A stretch of 64,000 nt of DNA. Origin: an uncultured Candidatus Saccharibacteria bacterium (lineage in GTDB: Bacteria > Patescibacteriota > Doudnabacteria > UBA920). Below the pieces are notes generated by a model. The model saw only the letters and a list, made by a program, of their open reading frames with translations, searched no databases and was not told where the DNA came from. This document shows positions 24,871 through 60,305 of this stretch, in pieces (position 1 is the stretch's first letter; every line of letters begins with the position of its first letter). Position numbers and translations under genes: made by a program. The stretch spans positions 201,481 through 265,480 of the forward strand of contig CAZHIA010000001.1 of NCBI GenBank assembly GCA_964532425.1, given 5' to 3'.

Positions 24871-24874
24871 TTTT

Positions 24875-43511: not shown

Positions 43512-43541
43512 GTATATCTAGAAAGTAATCCATATCCTGTA

Positions 43542-43585: not shown

Positions 43586-43784
43586 TTTCATTAGGTAAAT
43601 TTAATGAGGGCATAATCAATTTCTCAAGCTTGACGCTTATGGTGATATGGTGTTTAAATAGAGAGTCCGCACGGACTTACCTGATCCGAATAAAACCTAA
43701 CTTGCTAACCACATGTTGGGTTCGGAAAGGGACAACTGTTGCGCTAGACACGCAATGGTACTTCAATTTGAAAGAGGATTATAA

Positions 43785-44495: not shown

Positions 44496-44736
44496 CTGCG
44501 GCAAGTGCGAGAAAGCGGCGCGGTGGCGGTTAATAACCAAGACCGAAGGTTTTGGGAATTCGGATGCTGGCGGTGCAGCCCATATCCGTTACGCCTGCGA
44601 TGGCCACAGGGACGAGGTGAAGGGGGAGATGGAAGTTACCATCGCTGACGGCGAACGAGCGTGCGGCAATCCGCTGTATCCGCAGTTCTCCAAACTCGGA
44701 TTCGGCCCCGTTCAAACCGTTCCGTTCCGGCAGTAG
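44488..44736 (+). CDS. small zinc-ribbon protein, hypothetical
   Basis: CGKC...C.GH motif. Translationally coupled to the upstream gene. Confidence 0.4.
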   Translation: MVNCGKCEKAARWRLITKTEGFGNSDAGGAAHIRYACDGHRDEVKGEMEVTIADGERACGNPLYPQFSKLGFGPVQTVPFRQ

Positions 44737-44855
44737 CAAGACATGTATTTACACAACCAGCATACGTGCTGGCACGCAGCGCGCGTCTCGGATTCTATCC
44801 GGACGCGCGCTTTCTAATTGTTCCCACAAAGGTCACCTTCGTTTATTCAAAATAT

Positions 44856-44886
44856 AAAACCACCCTTCGACAAGCTCAGGGTGGTT
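44856..44886. terminator. conserved bidirectional terminator hairpin AAAACCACCCttcgacaagctcaGGGTGGTT (family copy 1)
   Basis: Sits between convergent genes. Near-identical copies lie at 46025 and 56218. Confidence 0.8.
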
Positions 44887-44918
44887 ATGGAGACGAAAAG
44901 CACATGGCGCCGTTTTGC

Positions 44919-45128
44919 CTATTTTGGTTCATCGTGCCCGGGGTCGTCCAATCCAGCGGCGATGTTGACTGCCTCTATGGATCGCTGCATTGCTTCGTTG
45001 TCGACAACCTCCGCAACCTGGTCGTACGTTAGCATGGCTACCATAATTGTGGCTTCCTTCAGTTCCCTGTCAGTCATGAAAAGGTTAGCCCGCAACTTCT
45101 GCTCGAAGAATGCTCTTTTTTCTCTCAT
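44919..45128 (-). CDS. small hypothetical protein
   Basis: 69-aa ORF with a strong GGAGGAAAGT SD. Confidence 0.4.
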   Translation of the reverse strand: MREKRAFFEQKLRANLFMTDRELKEATIMVAMLTYDQVAEVVDNEAMQRSIEAVNIAAGLDDPGHDEPK

Positions 45129-45287
45129 ACTTTCCTCCGGTCGTAAGATAGCTTAGGATAGCATGGCGTACGTACGCTGTCCAGAATGGGCAAACCCGGC
45201 ACCTTTACAAATAGTCCCTGCATTGCTATTCTGAATTTTCCATGATCCGGCCTGCGGGCAGGGGATTGGATGGAGAGGAGGAAGTGA

Positions 45288-45629
45288 GTGATTAAGTCGA
45301 ATGAGCGGGAAAAAGGGGATGTGACGATCGTGGACATTAGCGGGCGAATATCGCTCGGGCAGGGTGCAGACAGTTTGAGGGAAATAACCATTGACCTGGT
45401 TCGCAGAGGTCGGAAGAAGGTTATTCTCAACCTGGCCGAAACTTCTTACATCGACTCCAGTGGTATAGGGGAACTCGTGAGCGGTTTTACCCGTCTGGCC
45501 AATCACGGCGCTGAGCTTAAGCTGCTGGTTATTGGAAAGCGGCTTAAGGACTTGCTCAAAATGATAGGACTTTATACAGTCTTCGACATGTTCGAGGACG
45601 AAAACGAAGCTGTCCGAAGTTTCCAGTAG
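45288..45629 (+). CDS. STAS-domain anti-sigma-factor antagonist (SpoIIAA-like)
   Basis: YIDSSGIGEL phosphorylatable-Ser motif. 113 aa, with a GTG start and a GGAGAGGAGG SD. Confidence 0.8.
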   Translation: MIKSNEREKGDVTIVDISGRISLGQGADSLREITIDLVRRGRKKVILNLAETSYIDSSGIGELVSGFTRLANHGAELKLLVIGKRLKDLLKMIGLYTVFDMFEDENEAVRSFQ

Positions 45630-45641
45630 TAGGGAGGGAGA

Positions 45642-45992
45642 ATGGTAAAATTCAACATCACGGAAATTCAGGATGTCACCGTCCTTGATGCGTCGGGCAG
45701 GATCACACTCGGCGAAGGCTCGGTAATGCTACGGGACACATTCCGCGCGCTGGTTGCCGAAGGGAAACGCAAATTCGTTCTGTGTGTCGGTGATGTCAGC
45801 TACATCGACTCTTCCGGCATCGGCGAAATGGTCTCCGGACAGCATGTGGTAACCAAGAGCGGCGGAGAAATCAAACTCGCCGCGCTCACCAAACGCGTGA
45901 AGGACCTGCTTCAGATCACCAAGCTTTATACCGATTTCAGCGTCTACGACACTTCCGAAGACGCCGTCGAGGCGTTTCTGAAGGCGAAATAA
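45642..45992 (+). CDS. STAS-domain anti-sigma-factor antagonist, tandem paralogue
   Basis: YIDSSGIGEM motif. About 40% identical to the upstream gene. Confidence 0.8.
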   Translation: MVKFNITEIQDVTVLDASGRITLGEGSVMLRDTFRALVAEGKRKFVLCVGDVSYIDSSGIGEMVSGQHVVTKSGGEIKLAALTKRVKDLLQITKLYTDFSVYDTSEDAVEAFLKAK

Positions 45993-46024
45993 TAAGCACA
46001 AACAAATGGGGCACGTCCCTACAC

Positions 46025-46058
46025 AAAACCACCCTAGCTAGAACAAAGGGTGGTTTTT
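46025..46058. terminator. conserved terminator hairpin AAAACCACCCtagctagaacaaaGGGTGGTTTTT (family copy 2)
   Basis: Seen directly after the STAS pair. Confidence 0.8.
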
Positions 46059-46176
46059 ATATATCTTTGATGGACAAAATCGTTTACGAAGATTACGAAG
46101 GTGACCTTTGTAAATTCAAATTAAAAAGGCGGCACTGCGTGAGTGCCGCCGTTCTGTTTTGACGGTCTATAAATAT

Positions 46177-46362
46177 TTAGCCTCCTCCTGGCTCTAGTTT
46201 TTCTCCACAGTAGGGACAACACCATACGCGGTTGAGTTGGGGCTCTTGCAGGGTGAAGTAAAATACACCCCAGAAAACAGCGCCGAGGTCTTGGAACTGC
46301 TTTACATGCATTCCGTATGGCCTGCCCACCCCTTTGGGGCACTTATGCTCCTTCAAAGACAA
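46177..46362 (-). CDS. small Cys-rich protein (CPYCGEK zinc ribbon), hypothetical
   Basis: The ORF starts with TTG. An own terminator lies at 46125-46165. The start is uncertain, and an internal ATG is possible. Confidence 0.3.
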   Translation of the reverse strand: MSLKEHKCPKGVGRPYGMHVKQFQDLGAVFWGVFYFTLQEPQLNRVWCCPYCGEKLEPGGG

Positions 46363-46474
46363 CCTCCTTCCCTTCGTTCTTGGCTTATATCTCCCCGTTT
46401 GATAATTCCCAAAAGACGCTTTATTTTACCAAAAACTTTCGCAAAAGCAAAGGCATATTTAATGTATCTAATGT

Positions 46475-46518
46475 ATTATTCTACAAAAAGCTGCATATGC
46501 AGTTTTTTGTAGAATAAT
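46475..46518. repeat. 44-bp palindrome ATTATTCTACAAAAAGCTGCATATGCAGTTTTTTGTAGAATAAT (family copy 2, 1 mismatch)
   Basis: Seen directly. Confidence 0.9.
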
Positions 46519-46638
46519 CATGATTGAGTATGGGAATATACGAAGATGACCATTGTATGGGGACCTTTGTAACACAAAACCACCGCATGAGCGGCGGTTT
46601 AAAGTTTTTTTGTGGGGATACCTGGCCTACTTCGCTTT

Positions 46639-46953
46639 TCAGGCTACGCTGATCTCTGTGAAAAAACCTTTAAGCATTTCTTTCAGAACTGTTTTTCCTT
46701 TGGTTGTTTTAAAATACCTTTCCCTTTTTAGTGCATCAAATTTGTTCGGAAAAGCTTCATAAAAAATTAATTCAAGCGGTCTGCGATTTCGGGTGGAGAT
46801 ATTTTTTCCAGAATTATGATCTTTAACTCTTGTTTTTAAATCTTCAGAGTACCCAATATAAAACAGTCTATCTTTCAGGCTGCGGAGAATATAAACATAG
46901 TAAAATTTTACTGGCATATGTTTGTTTATACTATTTTGGTTATAGTATATCAC
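46639..46953 (-). CDS. GIY-YIG nuclease-family protein (small, URI-domain only)
   Basis: FYYVYILRS..DRLFYIGYSEDLKTRVKDHNSGK....RP..LIFYE motifs. The start is probably the internal Met (MPVKFYYVY). Confidence 0.75.
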   Translation of the reverse strand: MIYYNQNSINKHMPVKFYYVYILRSLKDRLFYIGYSEDLKTRVKDHNSGKNISTRNRRPLELIFYEAFPNKFDALKRERYFKTTKGKTVLKEMLKGFFTEISVA

Positions 46954-46963
46954 TAATTAAAAC

Positions 46964-47100
46964 AGCCCTGAACCACTCGGCCTGAAGGCCTTGGGTACAG
47001 GGCATGTATCAGTCGCTCATGGCTGCACTAGCCCTGAACCAGTCATCCGCCCAAAGCGGATTCCGGTACAGGGCATATACCACTCGCACTTTCATGTATA
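46964..47100. repeat. two tandem ~66-71-nt hairpin-containing repeats (AGCCCTGAACC...GGTACAGGGCAT...ATGGCTGC)
   Basis: Seen directly, immediately 3' of the tmRNA gene on its strand. Confidence 0.7.
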
Positions 47101-47137
47101 TGGCTGCGCCATATACCCGAGCAAAGCGAGTGGTATA

Positions 47138-47526
47138 TGGTGGAGATGCCGGGAGTTAAACCCGGGTCCAAAACGTATCGATCTTCCCATTATTCACAAG
47201 ATTAGTCGGTTATTGTACCTCTATGATATCCAACCGACAACGAATCATAAAGGCTGATATACAAGTCTTGTTCCCGGCAGGTATATCGGCCACCGGGCTA
47301 GCAACCTCTAATGAACCCACTAACCCCGAGCGGAGGTGCGCGCGGGAGTGAGGTAACAACCTAAAGTTAGGCCATTACAGGTGCGAGGTCGGCGTTTTGA
47401 AACGCGGCCACTACCTTTTGCCAGGAATTGGCATTTGTTGGTTGATCGCAGGATTTTCGAGGTCAGCAATCGTGCTCGTCTTGCATATGAAAAGATGTCA
47501 AAGTTCTGTCAAAAACCGTCATCCCC
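47138..47526 (-). ncRNA. ssrA: tmRNA (SsrA), one-piece
   Basis: On the minus strand the 5' end is GGGGAUGACGG and the 3' end is GGACCCGGGUUUAACUCCCGGCAUCUCCACCA. The 7-bp acceptor stem has a G3-U pair (alanine identity). A T-arm with a 7-nt loop is followed by ACCA. An internal tag-like frame follows a UAGUG context, analogous to E. coli UAGUC-GCA: GCC GCG UUU CAA AAC GCC GAC CUC GCA CCU GUA AUG GCC UAA (AAFQNADLAPVMA*). Confidence 0.7.
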
Positions 47527-47823
47527 ATAAAAAACTTCCAGAGGATAGTCCTGTACCCGACTCAAAGGAGTGGTATCAGGGCATCCCCGTGGATAATACT
47601 GTAGCATAAATTTTCCGTCAGGTCAATAAATTGGGTAAAAGACGACTTTTATATGCGCTAATTTATGGCTTATATAAGCCATAAATATATATTAATATTG
47701 ACAATATGACTAAAATGTTATATAATATACGGATACTTTCCAAGTATCAAAAAGGCTTTGCTGTGTGCCTTAACCAAACACTTCACGGCTCTTTATTGAG
47801 CTTTCAAAGGAGGTTCATTCCCA

Positions 47824-48413
47824 TGAATGAACAGATTTTTGACACCATCACGGTCGAATTTGATATCCTGTATCATGCATCGATCGAGCTGAGTGAGAAT
47901 GGAACATTTTCCATCACTCAGAAGTGCCAAGACGACCACGCCACGGCCAAAATCGCTAACAAGGACATCGAAGCTCTTGAGGCAGCTCTTCGGGAGGGTT
48001 TTAGAAACCCTAAAAACCGGCATGCGATTCACAGCATCTCGATCACGTTCAACAAGATGCGGCTCCCTCGGATGCAGATGTATGTCCCGGACAGTCAGGA
48101 CGAAAACGGTTTTCGGCAAGGGCTCGGGGTGCATGGCTTCGATGGGTTTACATTCATTTCTGATTGTGACCCGAAGTCAAAGCTGGTCACGATTATGATC
48201 CATCCGCACCAGATCACCGACGCCGACAAGACCTACGAGCAAGTTTTTAAGGCCTTCGTTGGCTTTGCGAGAAAGACTGTGCAGTTTGCGCGGAGTGGCG
48301 ACGCGATTACTAACCTTATTCGCGCGCTGCGCAAGCAGCCGACGGATGAAGGCTACATCTCCCGGGCCATTCACACGGCCTACGGCGAGATGAGCAAGCA
48401 GGCTCGCTACTAG
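47824..48413 (+). CDS. hypothetical protein
   Basis: Start at the internal ATG with an AAGGAGG SD (MNEQIFDTITVEF...). Confidence 0.5.
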
Positions 48414-48462
48414 TCGCGCAGAAGTGTACTAAGGGAATTTGGACCACACCGGGAGGGTGTAA

Positions 48463-48645
48463 ATGAAGCTATTTCTGCTCGTTTTTGAAGACAACCAGCT
48501 GGAGCTGGTTGACGCCGGGTGCATTTACACTTCTCCGGAAGTCGCGGAGGGTGTGAGAGTTGTCCGTCAGGGAATGTGGCCGGATCGGACGCTTGTCGTC
48601 CGGCCTATGGATGCCGACACGCGGAAGAGTTTCGCCGCGGTTTAG
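48463..48645 (+). CDS. small hypothetical protein
   Basis: 60-aa ORF with a GGGAGGG SD. Confidence 0.4.
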   Translation: MKLFLLVFEDNQLELVDAGCIYTSPEVAEGVRVVRQGMWPDRTLVVRPMDADTRKSFAAV

Positions 48646-48701
48646 TCGGCCAAACCAAAAAGAGGGAAGATGAATCGAGCGTTGTCCTGTGACGACGCGC
48701 A

Positions 48702-48744
48702 CTGCCGCCAAGACATCTTCGGATGTTGAGGCGGCTTTGTTTTG
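48702..48744. terminator. repeated terminator hairpin CTGCCGCCAAGACATCTTCGGATGTTGAGGCGGCTTTGTTTT (copy 1)
   Basis: An identical 40-nt copy lies at 49645..49688. Confidence 0.85.
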
Positions 48745-48824
48745 TCCGCTTACAATATAAAAACCGCCACAACACCCAAGACTTCGGGTGCGGGCGGTGT
48801 TTGATGAGCGACCAGGCTGCTCGG

Positions 48825-49142
48825 CTACTTCCGTTCCCAAACAACGGAATTCCAACCGGGCTTCCAGTTCGGTTTGTTGGGCACGAACTTTTTGACCGGC
48901 AGATCCCGCAAGCAGGGGAACTGATTGGTATCTGCCAGCGTTTCGGGATTGGCTTCGATGAATACCCGGATGAGCTTGATGTCGTTGGTGGATACGCCGT
49001 TCGACCAGGATCCTTTCGCGGCGATGGCTGCCGCCATCTGTTCCACATCCCTCCAGTCTAACGGCGGGGCGAGATTGATTTGGGCAAGCTGGACGCTGTC
49101 TTGCTTACCCACCGAGCCTTCGAGGCTCATTAAGCAGTACAT
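48825..49142 (-). CDS. hypothetical protein
   Basis: Start at the internal ATG (MYCLMSLEG..) with a GGGAGGAAG SD. A terminator lies at 48762-48806. Confidence 0.45.
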   Translation of the reverse strand: MYCLMSLEGSVGKQDSVQLAQINLAPPLDWRDVEQMAAAIAAKGSWSNGVSTNDIKLIRVFIEANPETLADTNQFPCLRDLPVKKFVPNKPNWKPGWNSVVWERK

Positions 49143-49294
49143 TCTAACTTCCTCCCTACTTGTGATGTTGGAACACACATAAAGATGCCATGTTTATGGG
49201 GTATTGTCAATTCAGCGTAGGCTGCATGCAATTGACAAATACCATAGAAGAGTGGTATTTTTGTTTGTTAGTGAACAACCCAAAGGAGACCAAA

Positions 49295-49603
49295 ATGAAA
49301 GTGCAAGTAGTTTCGTGGAGAGGCTATGCCAGCACCATGGATTTCATTCATGGTATGAGGCAAACTTTTACAGGGTTGCTTGTGTCAGGTGACACAACAC
49401 TCTTAATCACTTCAGTCGACGGGCTGGGACTTCAAGCCGCACGCCTCAACGAGAAAGAATTAGAGTACAAAGTTGAAGGTGAGGTGGAAGTTTCCGAAGA
49501 ATTTGTCCGGCGAGCGGAGGCCTTTGCGGCAGCCAAAGACGAACTGGGCACGCACGCACAAGAATTTAAGGCACTCGTCCCCAAAGGGGCCGGAACACTC
49601 TGA
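49295..49603 (+). CDS. hypothetical protein
   Basis: Start at the internal ATG (MKVQVVSWRG..) with an AAAGGAGA SD. Confidence 0.45.
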   Translation: MKVQVVSWRGYASTMDFIHGMRQTFTGLLVSGDTTLLITSVDGLGLQAARLNEKELEYKVEGEVEVSEEFVRRAEAFAAAKDELGTHAQEFKALVPKGAGTL

Positions 49604-49644
49604 AACGTTTGCACAATCTGAGTGCAGAACGGTCATCTTCTATA

Positions 49645-49688
49645 CTGCCGCCAAGACATCTTCGGATGTTGAGGCGGCTTTGTTTTTG
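49645..49688. terminator. repeated terminator hairpin (copy 2, identical to 48702..48744)
   Basis: Seen directly. Confidence 0.85.
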
Positions 49689-49769
49689 CTTATGTAATGA
49701 GACGTACTGAATACAATAGAGTAACTTTAAGCCGAAATGGTATAATACCATTGCTTAATTATAGTAAAG

Positions 49770-50657
49770 ATGCAACACGAACTTAGGACCTATTCTCCAT
49801 TTGAAAGCGAAAAGGGCAATAGCGGGAGATATAACCCCTTATACGAGTCTGTCCAAATTTCATCGTATGAAGGGTATATTGCAAACCCCGACCGCCAAGT
49901 GGCTTGTTTTTCCCTGGAAGCGGAAATGCAGGCAAAAGGGTTTGAAACCACGGCCATCGGCAATCAAACCGGAATTTTCAGGGTATTTAAAAATAAGAGA
50001 CTTTTTGGGTTGGCCCAAATGACTTTTGACAATACGGCCAAGTCCCATGGTGTGTACTTGCGTTTTATCGATCCGGACGGAACGTTCCATAAGCAGTCGG
50101 TAATCTTAAACCCCAAAGAGTATGACAAGGACGACTTTGAAAACATCCCGCTCGCAGATGCCATAGAGGGCATGACCCAATATTCCGAAGCTCGGCAAAA
50201 AGCATTCGAAGCTTACAAGGCGTCTTTAATAGAAGCGGTCAATAAGGGAAAGCGAAGCGAAAAATATGAAAGCTGGTTCAAAGTTGAACAATATATAACA
50301 AATGAGAACCTAATTTTTTACCGGCTTATAGATTCCATAGGAGGGGAGCTGAGAGATTTTCCTCACTGCACCAATCGGGTCAACCATGACCGTTTGAATA
50401 CGTTAATCGCACATTGGATGGACTTGGACATAGACGATACTCAGTTTGCGCGATCGCTCTTGAAGGACCCAAAGAGCGGGGACTTCCTGTACCCGGAAGA
50501 CTACGAAAAAGTCATACTCAATGACCTTGCGAAAGACGGCGATGACGAAACCGTGAGAGACTTACGCGCCTTCCTGGGCCATGCTTTCCAATACAGACAC
50601 ATTGGACGAATAATCCATACAATTGAGCATAGCCCATACTTTCAAAAATCAACATAG
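49770..50657 (+). CDS. hypothetical protein
   Basis: 295-aa ORF with a terminator hairpin at 50668-50700. Confidence 0.5.
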   Translation: MQHELRTYSPFESEKGNSGRYNPLYESVQISSYEGYIANPDRQVACFSLEAEMQAKGFETTAIGNQTGIFRVFKNKRLFGLAQMTFDNTAKSHGVYLRFIDPDGTFHKQSVILNPKEYDKDDFENIPLADAIEGMTQYSEARQKAFEAYKASLIEAVNKGKRSEKYESWFKVEQYITNENLIFYRLIDSIGGELRDFPHCTNRVNHDRLNTLIAHWMDLDIDDTQFARSLLKDPKSGDFLYPEDYEKVILNDLAKDGDDETVRDLRAFLGHAFQYRHIGRIIHTIEHSPYFQKST

Positions 50658-50812
50658 AAACCATTCGAAAACCGCTAGCCCTCCGCCAGCGGTTATATGT
50701 AAAAGAGGAACTGACACCTTGTTTGTTTATTAGAATATAGTACCGGAGGCTTCTGCTGGTGAATACATAGTCCTTTGTAGAATATCAAAATTTACAAAGA
50801 TTATCTTTGTGT

Positions 50813-50851
50813 ATGGGGGACTGAAGGAGTAAGTTTGAGATTTCTGCTATT
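50813..50851. repeat. direct repeat ATGGGGGACTGAAGGAGTAAGTTTGAGATTTCTGCTATT (left copy)
   Basis: Its partner lies at 57705..57747, with a 17-nt identical core GGACTGAAGGAGTAAG plus extended similarity. The pair brackets the low-GC island. Confidence 0.7.
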
Positions 50852-51074
50852 TTTGAAACCGCGCTCTAGGGCGACTTTGTTTTGCAAAGGTCCCCACGCA
50901 ATGGTCACCTTGGTATACCTTGGTATATGATTTGGTCGTTCGGAAAAGAAATAATAAACTATTTCAATAATTTCAATAGCAATAAATAAGTCTTCATGCG
51001 CCTTATTTATTTATACTTGTTAAATAAGCCAAAAAATGGCATACTATCTGTGTAAATTACTATAGCCAACAATA

Positions 51075-53498
51075 ATGTTGAAGATCTATCTAAAACAAGA
51101 CTGGGATTATCCATCCAATTACGATCCCAATACTAACCCCGGACACTTCGCTGGAAGAGATAAAGAGAAGAAAGAATTAGTCGATGAATTCCTGCGTAAA
51201 GATAACGGTAGTATTTTAATTAGCGGCGCAAGAGGTGTCGGTAAAACCTCTTTAGTTTACTACGCATTAAAAGAGTCTCAAGTAAGAAATACAAATATTA
51301 TTCCTATTGTCCTTAATGCATCTCAATTAGAGCTCCATACTTACCAGGTAACTACTAAGGATAAGGATTTGCCTTATGTTATTATAGAAAACCTGATCAG
51401 AAGACTATACGGGTATTTTCAGACAGATGGTACTAAAGTAGAAATTAGTAACAAAAATTATCAAAAGTTAGGCAACCTTTACAAGAAAGCCACGGCTAAA
51501 GAATATAGTCACTCTGAGCGATATGGAAACAAGGATGAATCTGTTGACGAAAATACCGTTGAAGAAACAAATACAGCTGAATCTACTTTCGATAAAAAAT
51601 CTCTTATTAACCTATTTTACTTAATAGGCATTTATACTCTATTTGCTGATCAATATTTTAATATAGAATATTGGAACAAAATAATTGGCATAACCTTTTT
51701 ATTTATACCCACATTTAGTTATAAATATCTATTTAAATCTGTTAAAAAGAACTTAAGTAAACTTAGCAAATCTAATTCCGCAGAAGATTTATACAAGGAA
51801 GATAATTCTTTGGGCAATCTTGAATATGAACTGAATTCTCTACTAAAAGAGTTATGCAAAGAAGGCAAAAAAGTCATTTTTGTCATTGACGAACTGGATA
51901 AGTTGGAAGATTCTCAAGAGTCAGAATCTAAAAAAGTATTTGAAATTATTAAAACTTTTAAGAATCTTTTTACTTTATCTTCTGCTTTGTTTGTTTTTAT
52001 TACTAGTGATATTTCATATAATACTGTAATGGCAACGAGAGCAGAACGTAGAATGTATTACACTTTATTTACTAATCGAATCTTTTTAAATCGGCCAGCG
52101 TATACTGACTTGGTTAAATATCTTAAAGGTATTGTAGATTATGTTGACAATAGTTTAACCAAAGATCGACCAGAGTTTACAGCCTTAGAGCAAAAGGATA
52201 GAGAGAAATTAAATGGTCTCTTCAATCATTTATGTTATGAAGCAAAAGGAGACTATTTTGAGCTATCTTTTGTTATTAGAGACTACATTAATGATTACAG
52301 TACAGAAGGCGAAAAACAACCAATAATCAATCTTGAGGACGATAAATACTTCGGCTTTGATGATAGGCTGAAAGCTAAACTACAAATAGTAGTAGCTCAA
52401 ATATACGATATAAATAAAAATCCAGTCCAATCACGTTGGCATGAGAATGATGGAATACTATCACAGCTTTATGGTTTCTTTGAGCGTAATCTCGCCAAAG
52501 GAACTTTTAGAATTAACCAGAAAACTGAAAATCAGTTAATAAAAGATGATTTAATCACTTACCTAAAAAGATTAGAAATTATTAAACTTCTAAAAAAAGA
52601 ACCGGAACAAGAAAATTCGGAACCAGACGTTGTCCATGTTTATCAATGGACAAATAACATTCCTGGAGAAAAAAGCATTCCAGATATTCCCGAAGCTCCA
52701 AATACTTTATTTAATGAAGAGCAAGCTTTTATTAATATCGCTAAGAAATACGTTCAATTAATTAACGATATTGATGACTTGGAAACCGATGCTAAAAATG
52801 TTGCTGAAGGAAAGTTTGAAAGAGGATCCTATGATTTTGAAACTGGAATAATTCAAACCCGTGATGCCAGCTCCATAACTGGTATTAATGCCTTTAACTT
52901 TTTTGAAAAATACGATGACTATATTTCCGGATTACTTGATTCTAAGCCCGAACATATTAATAAAGCAGATTTAAAGAATTTCACTAAGGAATTTGAAGAA
53001 GAGTTAAACAAGATTAAAGAGGCTACACTAAATATATTTAAAAATCTACTAATTAAAGTATTTAACTCTACAGGTTTTCAACATGGATTTGCCACTTTAC
53101 CCGAAGACGGCTCATTATTCACAAGCCTGAATGACTTAAGGACCGAAGTTGTTAATAAAGGAGTTCCACATTTTGTAGTATATAACTTAGACCCTGAGAA
53201 ATCTAAGCAGCTTTTAGTTACTCAAAATATAGACCTGAATATTTTGAGTAATGAAACTATAAAGTTACTGGATAAAAATTTATCGTATAGAATACTCAAC
53301 ATTCAAACTAATTCAGCACTAGACTACTCAAATAAAAATAAGTACAAAGATCAAAAGACTGAAACTACTAAAGGCAAAAGTAGAGTAACCGAGTTTACAA
53401 AAACGTCCGATTCATTTATTAACCTTGTAGCTAATAATGATTTATCAGTTTATCCTGAAATGCTAAAATCTGTTCATGATTGGTTTAATAGTAAGTAA
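51075..53498 (+). CDS. KAP-family P-loop NTPase (STAND-like, PifA-like) with membrane hairpin inserted between Walker A and B, plus large unknown C-terminal region
   Basis: FAGRDKEKKEL..x..ILISGARGVGKTSL Walker A, then two hydrophobic helices (LINLFYLIGIYTLFADQYF, IIGITFLFIPTFSYKYLF), then Walker B VIFVIDELDKLED. About 30% GC, against about 55% for the window. Confidence 0.65.
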   Translation: MLKIYLKQDWDYPSNYDPNTNPGHFAGRDKEKKELVDEFLRKDNGSILISGARGVGKTSLVYYALKESQVRNTNIIPIVLNASQLELHTYQVTTKDKDLPYVIIENLIRRLYGYFQTDGTKVEISNKNYQKLGNLYKKATAKEYSHSERYGNKDESVDENTVEETNTAESTFDKKSLINLFYLIGIYTLFADQYFNIEYWNKIIGITFLFIPTFSYKYLFKSVKKNLSKLSKSNSAEDLYKEDNSLGNLEYELNSLLKELCKEGKKVIFVIDELDKLEDSQESESKKVFEIIKTFKNLFTLSSALFVFITSDISYNTVMATRAERRMYYTLFTNRIFLNRPAYTDLVKYLKGIVDYVDNSLTKDRPEFTALEQKDREKLNGLFNHLCYEAKGDYFELSFVIRDYINDYSTEGEKQPIINLEDDKYFGFDDRLKAKLQIVVAQIYDINKNPVQSRWHENDGILSQLYGFFERNLAKGTFRINQKTENQLIKDDLITYLKRLEIIKLLKKEPEQENSEPDVVHVYQWTNNIPGEKSIPDIPEAPNTLFNEEQAFINIAKKYVQLINDIDDLETDAKNVAEGKFERGSYDFETGIIQTRDASSITGINAFNFFEKYDDYISGLLDSKPEHINKADLKNFTKEFEEELNKIKEATLNIFKNLLIKVFNSTGFQHGFATLPEDGSLFTSLNDLRTEVVNKGVPHFVVYNLDPEKSKQLLVTQNIDLNILSNETIKLLDKNLSYRILNIQTNSALDYSNKNKYKDQKTETTKGKSRVTEFTKTSDSFINLVANNDLSVYPEMLKSVHDWFNSK

Positions 53499-53585
53499 AG
53501 TTTACCGAATGCGTGGTACTAGAGGCTTTGAATTTGGCAAACTATTTTGCTCTAAATAAGGCATTTTTGGGCAAATAATATCAAT

Positions 53586-54245
53586 ATGACCACTAAGGAA
53601 CAAGTGCTTACTTTAATTTTCCAAGCTGTTCCGTCTTTCCAAAATTCAAAGATTTGGAAAGAGCATTTAGAATTTTGGGGAGATACAGAAGAACGAGGCT
53701 TGTACAATGATACGGCTGAATTGGCTAGATATATGGCGGAACAATATAAGGCTGGGGAAACTAAGGAACTTCCAGCATTATTCACATTGATTGAAAAGTT
53801 GTACCTCGAGGGAGATCATTACGTCAAAGAATTGGCAACAATTGGATTCTTAGAAGATCTTCAAGGCCAATTTGGTAATGCTGAAATAAAATCTGAGGTA
53901 TTAGAAAAGTATCTTGGACCTGAATCACAAAAATGGTGGAACTATTTAAATAACATTTGGTCAGGCAAGCTAAAGGAAAAATATCAATGGTTCCATGAGC
54001 GTGTTACTGAAATCGTCAATGCGCTTGACCCCTGGTATTTAATTTCAGGAGGTGCCCCCAAAGATGAATATAGCCAGGAAGTTACCCGAATTATAGCTGG
54101 TCTGAAGGATTGCGAAACGGAAGAGGATGCAAGGCAGCTTGTACTTAAACATTTAGGTGGCGAAAACAGTAGCAAAGAAGCTTGCGCCAAGATTGCCCAG
54201 CAGGTTTTCAAAATTTGGGAACAAATATTATTTTCCAAGGAATAA
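53586..54245 (+). CDS. hypothetical protein (island gene 2)
   Basis: 219-aa ORF, low GC. Confidence 0.5.
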   Translation: MTTKEQVLTLIFQAVPSFQNSKIWKEHLEFWGDTEERGLYNDTAELARYMAEQYKAGETKELPALFTLIEKLYLEGDHYVKELATIGFLEDLQGQFGNAEIKSEVLEKYLGPESQKWWNYLNNIWSGKLKEKYQWFHERVTEIVNALDPWYLISGGAPKDEYSQEVTRIIAGLKDCETEEDARQLVLKHLGGENSSKEACAKIAQQVFKIWEQILFSKE

Positions 54246-54249
54246 TTGT

Positions 54250-55176
54250 ATGTGGCCATTTAAGAAAGAAAATAAAAAATTCATGCTGCTTCAATCGGAA
54301 AAAGAAGGCAGGCCGGTTTGGATAACTGTCGATGGCAGCTTGAAAAATTTAGCAAAAAAAGATGAAACTCCCTGGTGTCTTTGGCTTGGAATACAAATTG
54401 AATCCCAAAAAGGATTACCGGACGAAAAGGAAGCAAAAGAGTTGAATGATTTTGAGGATGAAATTCAGAATAAATTATCAAAAATTGGTAAAATTCATTT
54501 TGTTCTTAGAACTACCTGGAACGGCCATCGGGACTTGTATTTTTACTTAAGTAAGGCAAAAGAATCCCATGAACTCCTATTGGGTATTACAAATTTACCA
54601 AAACCGCCGAAACAATTTCAATATGAAATTTCAAAAGACCCAAATTGGCAATCTGTTAATTGGGTATTTGAGCAACTAGATAAACAGCCTAAATCAGACA
54701 ATCCGAAAGATGAGAATAGTGTGACTTTGTTTGCTTTCAACAGCAATGAGAAACTGAAATCTCTTGCATATAGGGCTTTGAATGATGCAATAGAATTTAT
54801 GAAGAAAGATGGAAAATTTAACCCTTTCTGTTTAACAGAAAAAGAACTTTGGCGTCCAAAGTCCATTGGCGTTAATGAAAATATTCAAGAAATAGAAAAA
54901 CACATTGGTGTCTTACAAGACGAAACCATTGCTGTTTACTGCCATAGTGGTACAATCGGCATTCCGCCTTTTGGTAAAGAGGTAAACTGGCCGACACAGT
55001 TTGCAATATTTGTAAAAGCTTATGATAAAAACGAAGATAAAGGGTACTTGATTTTTCAGATGTATCGTCCAAGGACTGAAGCGGAAGGATTTGCTATATT
55101 AGGAAATACCACAATAGCACCAACTCCTAATATTTTTATTCATAGCTGTTTTCACGAAGGTGGCCTTTGCAAGTAA
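54250..55176 (+). CDS. hypothetical protein (island gene 3)
   Basis: Start at the ATG of MWPFKKENKK... 308 aa, low GC. Confidence 0.5.
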   Translation: MWPFKKENKKFMLLQSEKEGRPVWITVDGSLKNLAKKDETPWCLWLGIQIESQKGLPDEKEAKELNDFEDEIQNKLSKIGKIHFVLRTTWNGHRDLYFYLSKAKESHELLLGITNLPKPPKQFQYEISKDPNWQSVNWVFEQLDKQPKSDNPKDENSVTLFAFNSNEKLKSLAYRALNDAIEFMKKDGKFNPFCLTEKELWRPKSIGVNENIQEIEKHIGVLQDETIAVYCHSGTIGIPPFGKEVNWPTQFAIFVKAYDKNEDKGYLIFQMYRPRTEAEGFAILGNTTIAPTPNIFIHSCFHEGGLCK

Positions 55177-55747
55177 TTTGGAAAAACGAATGAAAAGAAG
55201 AGGGCATCTGTGGTTGCGGATTTCAGAAGAATCTAATGCCTTAGATAATCTCCAAAAAGCATATTCATTTATCATTCAAACCCATTCTGATGAGAATGCT
55301 TGGAAATGGGTTATATTAAGTATCCACTCCGCTTTATTCAGTTTTGCTATATGCGCTTTAAAAGGTACAAGTACTATAAATGTAACTATTCAGACAAAAA
55401 AAGGTGAGAGATTGATTAGTTTTCCTGAAGCGATCGAAATGGTACAGGACGAGAATCGGATGAGAATGACCGTGATGAGTAAGCATCTCCAGTTAACAGA
55501 TGACGAAAAGCGCTCGATAGATAGGCTGCATACAGAATTTCGAAATGAATTAGAACATTACATACCTAAATTATGGGTAATTGAAGTTCCCATGCTGCCG
55601 AAGATGGTTACTCACTGCTTGGATGTAATTAGATTTTTAGCTATTGAGTCAGGTAATTACGATCATTTTAGTGGCTACCAAAAACGAAAAATCAAATCAC
55701 TGATTTTCCAAAGTAAGAAATTTCTTACAAAGATGACCTTCGTTTAA
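55160..55747 (+). CDS. hypothetical protein (island gene 4)
   Basis: 195-aa ORF overlapping the previous stop. The true start may be the internal Met (MKRRGHLWL). Confidence 0.4.
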   Translation: MAFASNLEKRMKRRGHLWLRISEESNALDNLQKAYSFIIQTHSDENAWKWVILSIHSALFSFAICALKGTSTINVTIQTKKGERLISFPEAIEMVQDENRMRMTVMSKHLQLTDDEKRSIDRLHTEFRNELEHYIPKLWVIEVPMLPKMVTHCLDVIRFLAIESGNYDHFSGYQKRKIKSLIFQSKKFLTKMTFV

Positions 55748-55826
55748 ATACCTGTTTCTACAGGTATTTTCATTTAGCATGGTATTATTATAGGAGGAGT
55801 GCTACCTATAATTTGGTAATAGATAC

Positions 55827-56150
55827 ATGCTCAGGTTTTTAAAAACTCTCCATACTGTTATCTGGGTAATAATGGCCTCTGCCAATTTTTTGGCTTTTTA
55901 TTTTGCCTACATCGGCAGATTTGATGCCTGGTTTTGGGTACCCTGCTTACTCATAGTGGGTGAGAGCATAATAGTAGCCATGAACGGATGGCACTGCCCC
56001 ATAACCCCGATTGCGGCGAAGTACACGAAAGACCGAAATCCAAACTTTGATATTTATTTGCCTCAATGGTTAGCCGAATACAATGTCCGAATCTTTGGCA
56101 TACTCATAGTCTTGGAAATCATTATTGTTCTGGCCAAAAGATATAGGTAA
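55827..56150 (+). CDS. small membrane protein (DUF2784-like), island gene 5
   Basis: Two to three TM helices and a GWHCPITP motif. Confidence 0.5.
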   Translation: MLRFLKTLHTVIWVIMASANFLAFYFAYIGRFDAWFWVPCLLIVGESIIVAMNGWHCPITPIAAKYTKDRNPNFDIYLPQWLAEYNVRIFGILIVLEIIIVLAKRYR

Positions 56151-56180
56151 AAAGTACAAAAAGGTACCTGACACCATTTT

Positions 56181-56212
56181 GTTCCCGGATTTAACTCCCG
56201 GCATCTCAACCG
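56181..56212 (+). repeat. partial copy of the tmRNA 3' end (T-arm + acceptor 3' strand), inverted relative to ssrA
   Basis: gttcccggatttaactcccggcatctcaaccg matches ggacccgggtttaactcccggcatctccacca (the ssrA 3' end) at 27 of 32 positions. Confidence 0.75.
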
Positions 56213-56217
56213 TATAT

Positions 56218-56252
56218 GAAAACCACCCTTCGACTAGTTCAGGGTGGTTTTG
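56218..56252. terminator. conserved terminator hairpin AAAACCACCCttcgactagttcaGGGTGGTTTT (family copy 3)
   Basis: Differs from copy 1 at only 3 loop positions. Confidence 0.8.
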
Positions 56253-56255
56253 TGT

Positions 56256-56864
56256 TTACAAGGCACCGGGTACCTTTTCTGTTCCTTGCTTGGCAACTGC
56301 GAGGAAGACGTATTTGCGGGCCTCCCACTTCTTGCGGTCAGAAATCTCGCGGCTGTCTAAATACTTAAGACATGGACCTCCTAAACTCATTAATTCGGGC
56401 TGCCAGCGGGTGGACATGTAATACATCATCGGCGCTATCACGATTGGGGACTGAGATTTCTTTTTACGAACAAGCAGCTTATTACCTTGGTCTTCGTAGC
56501 CGCCACCCAAAGCCCAAACGAAGACTCCTGGATATTCTTTCAAGATCTCGGGGCAAATGGCGGAAAAAGCCAACCAGTGAATGATGGAAGCCGGGGCCAT
56601 ACCAAAGGCGTCCAGCTCCCTGAGGACCGTTGTGGTAATCATTTCGCGTTCGTTCAAAAATCCTCGAATCTCTACGGTTTCGGTTACATGTCTGCGGTAA
56701 CTATCGTACTTGTCTCTGACCGTTTGGGAAATACAAGTCATCCGTTCCTGGGCATGCGGAGTTTTCCGGTGGGCCGCCCGAAACATTTCTTCAAATGTTT
56801 TGGAGCGGTCAATGTTCACCGTAACCGGCAGATGTATGCCAAAAACTTCCTGTGCCTCAATCAT
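56256..56864 (-). CDS. hypothetical protein
   Basis: 202-aa ORF with normal GC. Confidence 0.5.
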   Translation of the reverse strand: MIEAQEVFGIHLPVTVNIDRSKTFEEMFRAAHRKTPHAQERMTCISQTVRDKYDSYRRHVTETVEIRGFLNEREMITTTVLRELDAFGMAPASIIHWLAFSAICPEILKEYPGVFVWALGGGYEDQGNKLLVRKKKSQSPIVIAPMMYYMSTRWQPELMSLGGPCLKYLDSREISDRKKWEARKYVFLAVAKQGTEKVPGAL

Positions 56865-56977
56865 AAACCCTCCTTAATATGGTTGACTCGAAATCGCTCT
56901 TGCTCCTAAACGGACTCAGCAGGAGTAGGGGTTGCAATAAGGTGTCGTGTGCCTTTTTTGTCCCACACCCATTGCTC

Positions 56978-57019
56978 ATTATTCTAAAAAAGCTGCATAT
57001 GCAGCTTTTTGTAGAATGA
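56978..57019. repeat. 44-bp palindrome family copy 3 (CATTATTCTAAAAAAGCTGCATATGCAGCTTTTTGTAGAATGAT)
   Basis: Seen directly. A TTGACA-N17-TAGACT promoter-like sequence lies about 45 bp downstream. Confidence 0.9.
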
Positions 57020-57121
57020 TAAGATTTTCAATGATTACCTTTGCGTGTCTGTCTTGACAAATTATAGTAGTCATAGTAGACTTTGTAGTCTTATAAAGAT
57101 ATGGAAGTAGGGGGGATTAAA

Positions 57122-57571
57122 GTGGAGGATATTGAAAGAAAGATTGTCCGTCCGGCAACTCGCCGTGACTGGCCGCGATTCGCATATGGTTTGGACAAGG
57201 CTCGAAAACTATTTGTGGCAGACGGAACGGAAGTGTATTTCCGTCATCTGCAAGTGGTGGAAGTCCACCGTCCGGTAACCCGTACTTTCACTAAATGGTG
57301 GGGTCTCAGAAAGTACCAAGAATCGTTCGATGAAATCGAAGAGGCGATATACTTCCAACCATCCGGTAGTGAGACGGCGTCGGACTACTTCTATTTCCGC
57401 TTCTATGAAGAAAAAGTGCTCTTGAAGGACTTGCCGGACGAAACTCTGTTCATTGCGACGGATAAGTTTGTGCGGAGGGGTGGTCGCATTGTAAGGAAGA
57501 AGAAGTCTTGGCTGAAGAAACTTATTTCAGCCCTCACACCCGCACCTGAGCCGGAGATTGTTCCTGCCTAG
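57122..57571 (+). CDS. hypothetical protein
   Basis: GTG start after an AGGGGGG SD. The longer frame starts at 57101. Confidence 0.45.
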   Translation: MEDIERKIVRPATRRDWPRFAYGLDKARKLFVADGTEVYFRHLQVVEVHRPVTRTFTKWWGLRKYQESFDEIEEAIYFQPSGSETASDYFYFRFYEEKVLLKDLPDETLFIATDKFVRRGGRIVRKKKSWLKKLISALTPAPEPEIVPA

Positions 57572-57704
57572 GCCATCAAACACGAATCGTTTAAAGTCTT
57601 TCAAGGCCGGGGGAGTTAGTGGCCTGTTAACCCCTTTCTCATTCGCAAGCGCCCCGCTTGCGAATTTTTATTTGTCAAACAACTGTGGTACCTTTTCCGT
57701 TCAT

Positions 57705-57747
57705 ATGGATGGTGGACTGAAGGAGTAAGGTGGAAATCTCTGTCATT
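57705..57747. repeat. direct repeat ATGGATGGTGGACTGAAGGAGTAAGGTGGAAATCTCTGTCATT (right copy)
   Basis: Partner of 50813..50851. Confidence 0.7.
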
Positions 57748-57796
57748 GACGAATACCAGTTAGTGTGGTATTTTTGACTGTCTAAGGAGGACACAG

Positions 57797-58423
57797 ATGG
57801 AACTGCATTACGATTTGTCTCTCACGCGGATAGCGGATCCCGGCATGTATCAAAGGACTTCCAATTACGATACATTCTTTAATGAGCATTCGCACCCCTC
57901 TCTTCAGGAGATCGACGATTTTCTGGCCGCGGCGTTTGGCTACCGGATGACCGAGGAACATGATTTCGAGAACCGGCTCATGCCGACATCCGCAGCTGCC
58001 GCTGCGCCGAATAATCCCATCGAGCAATACTTCGTGCGAACAGCCATTTTGGCGAGGAATGCGCAACGCAGCGCCCGTCAAGGATTTCAGGCTCCGGCAA
58101 CGGACGAAGCCCGATTGCTCATCGACTATGAAGAGGCGCAAGACCGGAAGTTGAGCGTCTTCGTCGCCATCGGTATCGGGATCAAAAGAGCCGCGGCACT
58201 TATTGAAACCGAAGACCGCTTGCACAAAATGGTCCTCGAGCATCCTGACGGCGGCTTTGCTCTCCTCAAAGAAGTTTGGCAGGAGAACAGAGACGGCATC
58301 CAACAGGAGATCAACGAGCGTGCTGAGCAACTCACCGAGGATGAGGCCAAAACGCTGCTGGCAAAGGCGTTCGGTCTCGACTTCGAGCAGTACAACGAAA
58401 TCTTTTACGAACAGCCGTCTTAG
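57797..58423 (+). CDS. hypothetical protein
   Basis: 208-aa ORF with an AAGGAGG SD. Confidence 0.5.
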   Translation: MELHYDLSLTRIADPGMYQRTSNYDTFFNEHSHPSLQEIDDFLAAAFGYRMTEEHDFENRLMPTSAAAAAPNNPIEQYFVRTAILARNAQRSARQGFQAPATDEARLLIDYEEAQDRKLSVFVAIGIGIKRAAALIETEDRLHKMVLEHPDGGFALLKEVWQENRDGIQQEINERAEQLTEDEAKTLLAKAFGLDFEQYNEIFYEQPS

Positions 58424-58519
58424 GGGCGGCCTGCTGCCAATCGCAGAGCACACAGAACAAAGTGTGCTCTTATTTTATTGCAATTATGTTTGGCCACTTG
58501 AATGACCTTTGAAAATTTA

Positions 58520-58558
58520 AACGCTCGTCCAAGAATTCCAATCTTGGACGAGCGTTTG
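58520..58558. terminator. bidirectional terminator
   Basis: aaacgctcgtccaagaattccaatcttggacgagcgttt, a perfect 14-bp stem. Confidence 0.85.
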
Positions 58559-58572
58559 CGTGTGGTGGCGGG

Positions 58573-58965
58573 TTAGGCCACCTTGAAGTTCCACTGGCCG
58601 TTGTTGTGGACGTGGAGGTAGGAGGGGACGCCGGACTTGCTCGGGACTTGGAATACGATTACGGCGTCGGTCCCTGGGTAGTACTCCACGTTCGAGATGT
58701 AGTGGAAGTCTCCACCGCAGATGAGGTGGTGAGACTCGGCTTGGCGCCTGGACCGCGGACAGTCGTGGGTTACGGTATCGATCCGCACGTGGACTTCACC
58801 GCCATTGTAGTTTACGGCGACGATCGTCCGTGTTCCGCTTGCGGTATTCGGAATATCGAACGACGCAAATTCCAGTCCGCCGGGAAGACTCTCGAGCACA
58901 GTGGCTCGCCTGAGCACTTCTCGCGCTCTGGCAACATCGAAAGAAACGGTTGTGTTTGTGGACAC
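58573..58965 (-). CDS. hypothetical protein
   Basis: 130-aa ORF. Confidence 0.45.
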   Translation of the reverse strand: MSTNTTVSFDVARAREVLRRATVLESLPGGLEFASFDIPNTASGTRTIVAVNYNGGEVHVRIDTVTHDCPRSRRQAESHHLICGGDFHYISNVEYYPGTDAVIVFQVPSKSGVPSYLHVHNNGQWNFKVA

Positions 58966-59451
58966 TTTAGTGCCTCCTTAGAATCCCTCATCCTGTTAGG
59001 GACTGCTTAGTCTATAATAAACAGGGTAGTTTGTCAATGGCTTTTTTAATAAGTTAAGGTCGTTCCAGGACTGGAAAATAACAAATTTCTTAGATAAATA
59101 TAAAGACGCTCTCATTTCGAGAGCGTCTCAATTGCGAGCCATAGCGTTGGGATTCCGACGACGAGCATGGAAGCCGCTATGTGTCTGTTGACTGAACGGG
59201 GTGCGGTGCGGAAAACCATACAGCCTCCGCAGAGAACAAGGAATAATCCGAGCAGCAAAAGAAGCATCTGTCCCTCCTTAACTGATAATGGTAATAAAGT
59301 AGGGAGTTGGCGTCAATAGTTGGATTTTTTTCTTTTGATCGAATTCATTACTAAATACCCCCGAAAAAGTGGTATTTTTGTATATCTTGACATATGCTTA
59401 AAAATATGCTAGAATAATTGTTAAAATCAATTCCAAGTTTAAGGGGGTAGT

Positions 59452-59907
59452 ATGGAAGTCCTCGATTTAACTTTCTGCAAAACGACTCAAGGTGGCAAGT
59501 ACCACCTTGGCCGCGTCGATCTCAATTCGATCGCCGACGAGCAAGTTCGCAGATTCGTCGAAACCCTGGTCCGCACTAAGCAAATCGTGTTCGACTGGGG
59601 GATGGATGTCTTCTGGGTCCACCCTACGCCGTTTGCGATAAACTACGAAACCGGCGCGATTCGCCGGACCGACACCAACGCCGAGATCGGCAACGATGGC
59701 TGGATCCCGTGCGATCCGCTGGACCTGCATTCGGCCCTCTCCTCGGTATTCGAAGGGGAGTGGGGACCGAGTTCGGTGGACAGCATCCTGAGCATGGAAT
59801 GTTCGGGGGTGCGTGTTGACCTCTGCGGCACAAAGACGTACGGCCCAGAGGATCCCAAGGGGTTTATGGAAAGCCTCAGGCGCGAGCTGGTTTCGCAACA
59901 GGGATAG
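59452..59907 (+). CDS. hypothetical protein
   Basis: 151-aa ORF with an AAGGGGG SD. Confidence 0.5.
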   Translation: MEVLDLTFCKTTQGGKYHLGRVDLNSIADEQVRRFVETLVRTKQIVFDWGMDVFWVHPTPFAINYETGAIRRTDTNAEIGNDGWIPCDPLDLHSALSSVFEGEWGPSSVDSILSMECSGVRVDLCGTKTYGPEDPKGFMESLRRELVSQQG

Positions 59908-59916
59908 GAGGGTGTC

Positions 59917-60138
59917 GTGAAATTGTTCGTCTACTGCTTTACTGGCCAAGAGAGCTCCCTCATCTTTACATCGCCGCTCGACTCAGAAGCGATGTGGGCC
60001 TACTTGGCCTCTCAAGACGGGGTGAGCGTCGAAGACGCCAAAGAGCAGTATCGCATGCAGGTCAGGGAGGTAAACCCTGCCGAGACTACTCAGGTAGTGA
60101 ACTTCTACTGCACTGACGGTCTTATTACTCTGAGGTGA
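59917..60138 (+). CDS. small hypothetical protein
   Basis: GTG start with a GGAGGG SD, coupled to the upstream gene. A terminator lies at 60160-60200. Confidence 0.4.
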   Translation: MKLFVYCFTGQESSLIFTSPLDSEAMWAYLASQDGVSVEDAKEQYRMQVREVNPAETTQVVNFYCTDGLITLR

Positions 60139-60261: not shown

Positions 60262-60305
60262 ATTATTCTACAAAAAACTGCATATGCAGTTTTTTGTAGA
60301 ATAAT
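60262..60305. repeat. 44-bp perfect palindrome TATTATTCTACAAAAAACTGCATATGCAGTTTTTTGTAGAATAATGA (family copy 4)
   Basis: Seen directly. Confidence 0.9.

Follow-up and report, generated by a model that had tools for sequence, protein, structure and literature searches.

The present analysis concerns a pair of direct repeats, here termed module B, in a 64,000-nt stretch from an uncultured Candidatus Saccharibacteria bacterium (Doudnabacteria; contig CAZHIA010000001.1, positions 201,481 to 265,480), which is referred to as the window. With a probability that we put at roughly 55%, the two repeats represent homologous copies of one short intergenic module and has become the vestigial stub of a translation start, retaining little function, if any. 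Module B belongs to a mosaic that is assembled locally from recurring intergenic modules, the others being designated Q, M, A, C and P, and from nested-hairpin terminators. The gene for transfer-messenger RNA (tmRNA) is surrounded by a variable region of about 20 kb (39.6-60.4 kb) with small gene cassettes, most of them orphans, and the modules fill the spacers between these cassettes.

An earlier interpretation made from the DNA letters alone (hereafter the sequence-only reading) had placed direct repeats about 6.9 kb apart at 50813 and 57705, and both sequences are indeed present there. Their best ungapped alignment pairs 50810-50851 with 57706-57747 and contains 34 identical positions out of 42 (81%) without any gap, both copies being intergenic and located on the same strand at a start-to-start distance of 6,896 bp. 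The longest identical run is the 16-mer GGACTGAAGGAGTAAG, for which the 64-kb window holds no third match even with three mismatches allowed, and an nhmmer profile built from both copies likewise retrieved no third copy in the window. Beyond the edges of B, the two loci are 41% identical.

That two AT-rich intergenic sequences containing a Shine-Dalgarno (SD) motif are merely alike by accident appears highly improbable. In favor of an accident, an exact 16-mer shared within 64 kb is expected in about 0.5 pairs by our own arithmetic, and among 30 dinucleotide-preserving shuffles of the whole window, each compared with itself, one reached an equal score, i.e., a match of at least 42.6 bits in direct or inverted orientation. 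On the other hand, the flanks of the 16-mer contribute 18 further matches over 26 positions, and both copies lie between genes on the same strand, each behind an M-type element. In addition, a collinear match in module A is found upstream, which together with the shared M flank argues strongly against coincidence. Hence, the similarity between the B copies is moderately but genuinely above chance; it is not overwhelming if taken alone, and its case is strengthened by the second collinear match, module A, just upstream. Both copies were also recovered in Logan contigs, which are independent assemblies of run SRR11567520 from the same organism and are 100% identical to the window at 43557-48730 (L024), 49657-57016 (L004) and 56990-59929 (L001), together spanning both B copies and all junctions discussed. 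Since these contigs reproduce the copies and the junctions, an assembly artefact is excluded for all features treated here.

The first 11 nt of B (ATGGnGGAC) constitute a flank that also follows M at 46557 and, as reverse complement, at 50897, so that the B-specific part comprises the last 30 nt or so. The best-conserved core of this part is the consensus SD motif AAGGAG, which is followed 4 nt downstream by GTG and by six conserved codons (E-I-S-A/V-I). In the GTG frame, copy 2 encodes M-E-I-S-V-I-D-E-Y-Q-L-V-W-Y-F-stop, an open reading frame (ORF) of 15 codons ending at the TGA at 57775-57777, and copy 1 reads F-E-I-S-A-I-F-E-T-A-L-stop in the same register, with TTT where the start codon of the conserved frame should be. 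Over the first 18 nt of this frame the copies differ at six sites, which fall on codon positions 1, 3, 3, 3, 2 and 3 and include two synonymous changes (GAG/GAA and ATT/ATC); this pattern, made up of six events only, is suggestive of a former coding start. No internal dyad symmetry is discernible in B, and RNA folding revealed no stable or shared structure, since the copies fold differently with z-scores between -0.16 and +0.47 and form no alternative hairpin. Among the Rfam covariance models, only tmRNA passes the gathering threshold in the window, and nothing falls on B at an E-value of up to 1.

Two circumstances suggest that B is most probably vestigial, namely that copy 1 is devoid of a start codon and that copy 2 lies off the mRNA made from the adjacent promoter. 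Copy 2 is situated between an intrinsic terminator with an 11-bp stem, which ends 40 nt before it, and the -35 element of P, the promoter module of a gene for a 208-aa protein; because it comes after the terminator and upstream of the -35 element, it should not be part of the 208-aa gene mRNA. Downstream of copy 1, the terminator-like module C' is encountered, followed by the own promoter region of a gene for a large P-loop ATPase.

The surroundings of both copies are built from the same kinds of modules in different arrangements. At locus 1 the order is Q-half, A, B and C', whereas locus 2 reads Q, A, a 659-bp block, B and P, i.e., A and B are contiguous at the former and 659 bp apart at the latter. 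The sequence upstream of copy 1 resembles A at locus 2 and not the sequence directly upstream of copy 2: 50760-50812 is 72% identical to 56994-57046 overall, and 50774-50812 is 79% identical to 57008-57046. Each copy of B has a sharp right edge at which another recurrent module sets in, C' beginning 1 nt past the end of copy 1 and P where copy 2 ends. Moreover, locus 1 departs from the loci that carry M together with C immediately past GGGGAC. All module copies lie at 39.6-60.4 kb and none at 1-39 kb of the window; in the 64 kb searched, B itself occurs twice.

Module Q is a perfect palindrome of 38-46 bp, ATTCTACAAAAAGCTGCATATGCAGCTTTTTGTAGAAT, present in four near-perfect copies (43541-43586, 46475-46518, 56978-57021 and 60262-60305) and two degenerate ones (42745-42784 and the right half at 50760-50784), all within 42.7-60.3 kb. 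Module M is a 17-bp palindrome with the consensus ACAAAGGTnACCTTTGT and has nine matches as against 0.3 expected, all of them at 39.6-55.8 kb and mostly at gene 3' ends or beside terminators. Two GC-rich M copies are located inside the low-GC island described below, at the ends of consecutive genes. Homologs of P were detected at 49232 and, on the minus strand, at 49210 (both within 49175-49269), at 59350-59385 and in the soil-metagenome contig L013 (8240-8276). The copies at 49232, 49210, 57746 and in L013 precede an SD motif and an ATG by a few tens of nucleotides, and at 59350 a second promoter intervenes before the gene. In the form TTGACA, 17 nt, TG-extended TATTTT, the module is reused before unrelated small genes and is common to the window and to L013, a contig of 35% GC. 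The nested-hairpin terminator is shared as well, L013 8763-8807 resembling window 48797-48754. A 43-nt terminator-like sequence, consisting of a nested hairpin and TTTGTTTT, forms an exact direct repeat (48701-48743 and 49644-49686, 943 bp apart), between whose copies two small genes and the divergent promoters P/P' are situated. The end of one Logan contig falls within the first of these copies, and the beginning of another within the second. The coordinates of the features under discussion are compiled in Table 1.

Table 1. Positions of module B, of neighboring modules and of associated genes (window coordinates unless a contig is named)
Feature	Position	Strand	Remarks
Repeat copy 1 (module B1)	50810..50851	+	M flank ATGGGGGAC, AAGGAG, TAAG, TTT (start codon lost), GAG ATT TCT GCT ATT
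Repeat copy 2 (module B2)	57706..57747	+	ATGGTGGAC, AAGGAG, TAAG, GTG GAA ATC TCT GTC ATT
Degenerate right half of Q (50760-50784) and module A1	50760..50812	+	M at 50794-50810; contiguous upstream of B1
Full Q (56978-57021) and module A2	56978..57046	+	homolog of 50760-50812
659-bp block between A2 and B2	57047..57705	+	promoter, 156-aa gene, terminator, M-like remnant (~57680-57702)
Promoter of 156-aa gene	57054-57082	+	TTGACA-17-TAGACT
156-aa gene	57101-57571	+	within 659-bp block
Intrinsic terminator of 156-aa gene	57641..57665	+	11-bp stem, then T run; 40 nt upstream of B2
Promoter module P of 208-aa gene	57746..57774 (57746-57781 as reused module)	+	TTGACG, 17 nt, TG-extended TATTTT; internal inverted repeat AATACCA..TGGTATT
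Module C	46537..46603	+	M (46540-46556), ATGGGGAC, terminator; adjoins GIY-YIG gene
Module C'	50853..50917	-	inverted copy of 46537-46603, 79% over 67 nt; M at 50898-50914; decayed terminator hairpin
M copies	39651, 40642, 44826, 46095, 46540, 50794, 50898, 55154, 55727		
Small GIY-YIG gene	46639..46953	-	just downstream of tmRNA 3' end; GC 32%, GC3 (GC at third codon positions) 0.29
Intact tmRNA gene	47138..47526	-	full length by Rfam
Low-GC tract	50918..56176	+	34% GC; GC3 of genes 0.25-0.49
KAP/STAND-like P-loop ATPase gene	51075-53498		807 aa; followed by DUF7674 and DUF695 genes
Displaced tmRNA 3' copy	56177..56216	+	last 36 nt of tmRNA plus 4 nt, 35/40 identical; right end of low-GC tract
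Palindromes at PaaX_M homologs	L021 461-498, 1188-1227; L018 2960-2997, 3659-3704		

From these arrangements, we infer a history of duplication followed by replacement. The Q-A-B unit would originally have been the 5' region of a cassette gene and would have been duplicated within the region, after which the gene body behind B would have been replaced by C' at copy 1 and by promoter P at copy 2. A further change is proposed for locus 2, where a cassette of 659 bp with promoter, gene and terminator of its own would have come between A and B. Additive islands at tRNA and tmRNA genes are known to collect cassettes of differing origin and to become mosaic (PMC6917214).

Several points weigh against B as a vestigial start. 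The bias toward third positions amounts to six mismatches and is not significant by itself (roughly p ~0.1 per frame by our own calculation), an intact gene starting with MEIS(A/V)I was not found in the 64-kb window, and the GTG is only 4 nt past AAGGAG, a spacing shorter than usual. Moreover, there are two copies only and no relatives, so the proposed history is a reconstruction rather than an observation. Finally, B could instead act at the level of DNA, as a protein-binding site upstream of P or as a recombination boundary adjoining M, an option that we regard as unlikely and that is taken up below.

A different use of the same signals would be a functional small ORF or leader, in which B provides a working ribosome-binding site (RBS) and start for a regulatory or translationally coupled peptide of 15 aa at copy 2 and 30 aa at copy 1. 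The sequence-only reading had offered a conserved leader-peptide/RBS element as one explanation, and the SD motif plus start codon was borne out while the conserved leader peptide was not. A strong AAGGAG is followed by GTG or TTG, six codons of the copy 2 frame are conserved in copy 1, and the copy 2 ORF ends 7 nt before the SD motif of the 208-aa gene. Both short ORFs that had been named, of 30 and 16 codons, do exist, but they occupy different frames relative to the aligned nucleotides; because the 30-codon TTG ORF of copy 1 is in the +1 frame, the two are not homologous peptides, and copy 1 lacks a start codon in the frame that is conserved. As copy 2 comes 40 nt past the terminator and before the -35 element of P, it is unlikely to be on an mRNA, whereas copy 1 is succeeded by a terminator-like module and by the ATPase's own promoter region, which is conserved with the gene in L013 from 51016 onward. 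No alternative hairpin (z-scores near 0), Rfam match or conservation in any collection searched lends support to such a peptide. The likeness to leader peptides and upstream ORFs of attenuators therefore extends to a strong SD motif and a short ORF upstream of a gene; here the peptides are unconserved, the frames differ, one copy is devoid of a start, the other is upstream of a promoter, and no alternative terminator/antiterminator folding was found. Taken together, a functional peptide seems rather improbable.

The DNA-level alternative holds that B and the adjoining M mark the start of a cassette as a protein-binding or recombination boundary, or that B serves P as an activator or UP-type site. 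It can point to the constant position of B behind M or an M-like element plus ATGGnGGAC, to the departure of locus 1 from the M-C loci immediately after GGGGAC, to the location of B2 at about -37 to -78 relative to promoter P, and to the strong enrichment and confinement of M and Q in this region. However, the other copies of P (49232, 49210, 59350 and L013) have no B upstream, B is devoid of symmetry, no recombinase gene accompanies it, and two copies are too few to define a binding motif, all of which renders a role of this kind doubtful. A far more speculative extension, to which we attach very little weight, would see M and Q as boundary sites of an undescribed cassette-shuffling system headed by a gene with winged helix-turn-helix (wHTH) and Cas2-like (PaaX_M) domains, with B as the conserved cassette 5' end after GGGGAC, the 659-bp block as an inserted cassette and locus 1 as the empty junction.

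Some known systems resemble the mosaic in form, and so does the mosaic composition of additive islands at tRNA and tmRNA genes (PMC6917214). The bacterial interspersed mosaic elements (BIMEs) of E. coli combine repetitive extragenic palindromic (REP) units with extra motifs. Pneumococcal BOX elements are built from boxA, boxB and boxC modules (PMC3049150). As in BIMEs and BOX elements, the modules described here measure 17-70 nt, are palindromic in some cases (Q and M), vary in order and orientation within spacers, are often found at terminators or gene ends and show sharp, reused edges. Unlike those elements, the copies seen in the window are restricted to one stretch of about 20 kb and absent from its other 39 kb; B, with two copies, is non-palindromic and resembles an RBS with a start codon. 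Integrons offer a further comparison, by analogy only. Their attC sites are 57-141 bp long, and integron cassettes begin just upstream of an RBS. Similar traits in the window are palindromes at gene 3' ends (M at 44826, 55154 and 55727), an RBS-containing sequence right behind a conserved flank, and a gene-sized block that only one of two homologous loci carries. In contrast to integrons, no integrase is found here, M comprises 17 bp with a 1-nt center as opposed to the much longer attC, and the cassettes, which occur in both orientations, come with promoters and terminators of their own.

A further explanation in the sequence-only reading, attL/attR-like scars, is not supported. It would make B1 and B2 the duplicated core, or the excision substrates, of a 6.9-kb segment. 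In its favor, same-strand direct repeats flank a segment holding compositionally foreign DNA, and the identical core of 16 nt is of a size seen in att cores, direct repeats that typically measure 16-20 bp (PMC6917214). As had been claimed, the repeats literally bracket the low-GC island and two adjacent genes. Nevertheless, they are not at the borders of acquired DNA on either side. On the left, the GC drop (at roughly 50918-50940) follows the end of copy 1 after about 65-90 nt, with module C' intervening; on the right, 1.5 kb with the 202-aa and 156-aa genes of normal GC separate the end of the island from copy 2. The bracketed segment is composite, consisting of a 34% GC tract plus genes of 47-49% GC, and homology to L013 stops within it at 51016 and 53554. 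No recombinase resides in or beside the segment, and searches with Pfam, PADLOC and PHROGs detected no recombinase, integrase or transposase domain in any ORF of the segment, within about 7 kb of it, or at 39-64 kb; PADLOC and PHROGs returned nothing useful for ten local proteins. Furthermore, B has no dyad symmetry, both of its edges join other repeated modules instead of unique flanks, and a better border mark, the tmRNA 3' fragment at 56177-56216, is found inside the segment. Compared with attL/attR of tRNA/tmRNA islands as catalogued in Islander (PMC6917214), the likeness is that direct repeats flank DNA of foreign composition beside a tmRNA gene, whereas the att-type relic here is the tmRNA fragment and not B, which is not part of tmRNA, is off the composition boundaries and is unaccompanied by a recombinase. 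B1 and B2 are thus most unlikely to be att scars.

The low-GC island finds its reference point in the tmRNA gene. The tract encodes the 807-aa KAP/STAND-type P-loop ATPase, a DUF7674 protein, a DUF695 protein and proteins of 185 aa and 107 aa, and a displaced 3' end of tmRNA is found at its right border; B does not delimit the island. Displaced tRNA/tmRNA 3' ends as island border marks were reportedly described by Williams in 2002. Such a displaced 3' end is regarded as the classical border mark of islands integrated at these genes (PMC6917214). By this criterion of sequence, the low-GC island is attributable to the tmRNA locus. As in Islander-type islands, an intact tmRNA gene is paired with a displaced 3' copy at the far border of deviant DNA; as arranged now, the two tmRNA sequences are inverted instead of direct, and no integrase was found. 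A copy of the fragment in direct orientation was also sought at the left GC border, where the best local score lay within the random range.

The small GIY-YIG gene is the only gene outside the low-GC tract with island-like composition among the 22 genes examined at 42-64 kb. Of the inverted repeat formed by C and C' (46537-46603 and 50853-50917), one arm adjoins the GIY-YIG piece and the other the main low-GC tract. This arrangement suggests, at about even odds, that an island of about 5.9 kb may have been split by a 4.25-kb inversion of 46604-50852. Flipping this segment would yield the order tmRNA(+), GIY-YIG(+), C', ATPase through 107-aa gene and tmRNA 3' fragment(+). In this order the att repeats would be direct, as is canonical for tmRNA islands, and the integrase would have been lost. 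Against the inversion stands the identity of only 79% between C and C', and no relative displaying the ancestral order was recovered. B1 would be located at the inner right end of the inverted segment, and B2 has no such relation. The predicted tag of the tmRNA is unusual (ANSWQKVVAAFQNADLAPVMA). No SmpB was found among the neighboring ORFs scanned with Pfam, the tmRNA gene being surrounded by orphan cassettes. Between the GIY-YIG gene and the 3' end of the tmRNA, the spacer (46954-47137) has 53% GC; a 23-nt repeat occurs in it twice at a distance of 71 nt (46994 and 47065), together with a 67-nt imperfect palindrome (47074-47139).

Comparison of the ATPase with foreign contigs (L013-L017) makes a transferable unit visible within the island. 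The closest foreign relative, on contigs L013-L015, is 81% identical in protein, and because DNA homology to L013 covers only 51016-53554, the ATPase cassette emerges as such a unit, at a distance from both B copies. The 81%-identical homolog is adjacent to HEPN_AbiU2 on a contig (L013) that starts with a serine recombinase, a homolog of 46% identity is adjacent to GmrSD and a rolling-circle Rep protein, and both contexts carry LOOT RNA (RF03000), on which the literature yielded nothing usable. In L013-L015 and in L016, these HEPN_AbiU2 or GmrSD, recombinase or Rep, and LOOT RNA neighbors mark the ATPase as mobile, defense-type cargo. An ancestral order of GIY-YIG followed by ATPase was considered on the basis of L013 and dropped, since the 113-aa ORF upstream of the ATPase there has no Pfam GIY-YIG match and is unlike the GIY-YIG protein of the window.

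Searches beyond the window returned no relatives of the locus in the collections covered, only the same organism being recovered. For TGGNGGACTGAAGGAGTAAG, or a version of it beginning with ATGG, 2.9 million viral contigs contained no match; one match in 185,579 species genomes and six in JGI metagenomes were dismissed as chance, as none of the seven shares flanks with the locus. Neither P nor Q was found in viral contigs, and a megablast comparison of 42.6-60.4 kb of the window with plasmids and phages was likewise negative. At the protein level, the 208-aa protein encoded downstream of B2 is a strict orphan, and the clusters of seven local proteins comprise this organism only; a 31-aa cluster representative (P0004) proved to be unrelated.

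The gene for the wHTH/PaaX_M protein with its Cas2-like domain, at 42.8-43.5 kb, is itself flanked by Q-type sequences (42745-43586), the palindrome in its promoter being degenerate and the one right after its stop codon near-perfect and 40-46 bp long. Two PaaX_M homologs, 55% and 50% identical, are surrounded by the same layout, and one of the two is from a Candidatus Doudnabacteria contig; the outer palindrome arms are conserved (ATTCTACAAAA / CATTTTAC) while the centers differ; at a homolog of 33% identity (L022) no clear flanking palindromes were seen. Further Q copies in the window punctuate the variable region every 3-6 kb. Judged from this co-occurrence in sequence, the Q palindromes are likely, as putative sites, to be the cognate binding sites of the PaaX_M/Cas2-like protein.

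Some additional features of the window lie apart from the mosaic. A 170-nt imperfect palindrome is present at 29603-29770 and a 77-nt palindrome at 783-859, and the hairpin CCCCTCCATGGGGACCATGGAGGGG occurs twice (35854-35881 and 37805-37832), flanking a gene at 35953-37116. In addition, a cluster at 19956-27965 encodes an 852-aa protein without family match, a ClpB/ClpA-like AAA+ ATPase, a protein with matches to TraD/VirD4-like coupling proteins and a tetratricopeptide repeat (TPR) protein, and may be part of a mobile or conflict system.

By itself, B matters little, being a lineage-specific intergenic scrap without detectable homolog elsewhere. It is of use as a pointer to the variable region beside the tmRNA gene, where a few reusable modules make up the spacers. 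Treating B as an att site would lead to wrong island borders and to a wrong idea of the island's mobility. The inverted att relic of the tmRNA and the palindromes of the Cas2-like regulator constitute better leads than B. The corrected island map links the foreign low-GC DNA to the tmRNA gene and shows it as apparently split by an inversion; B does not bound it.

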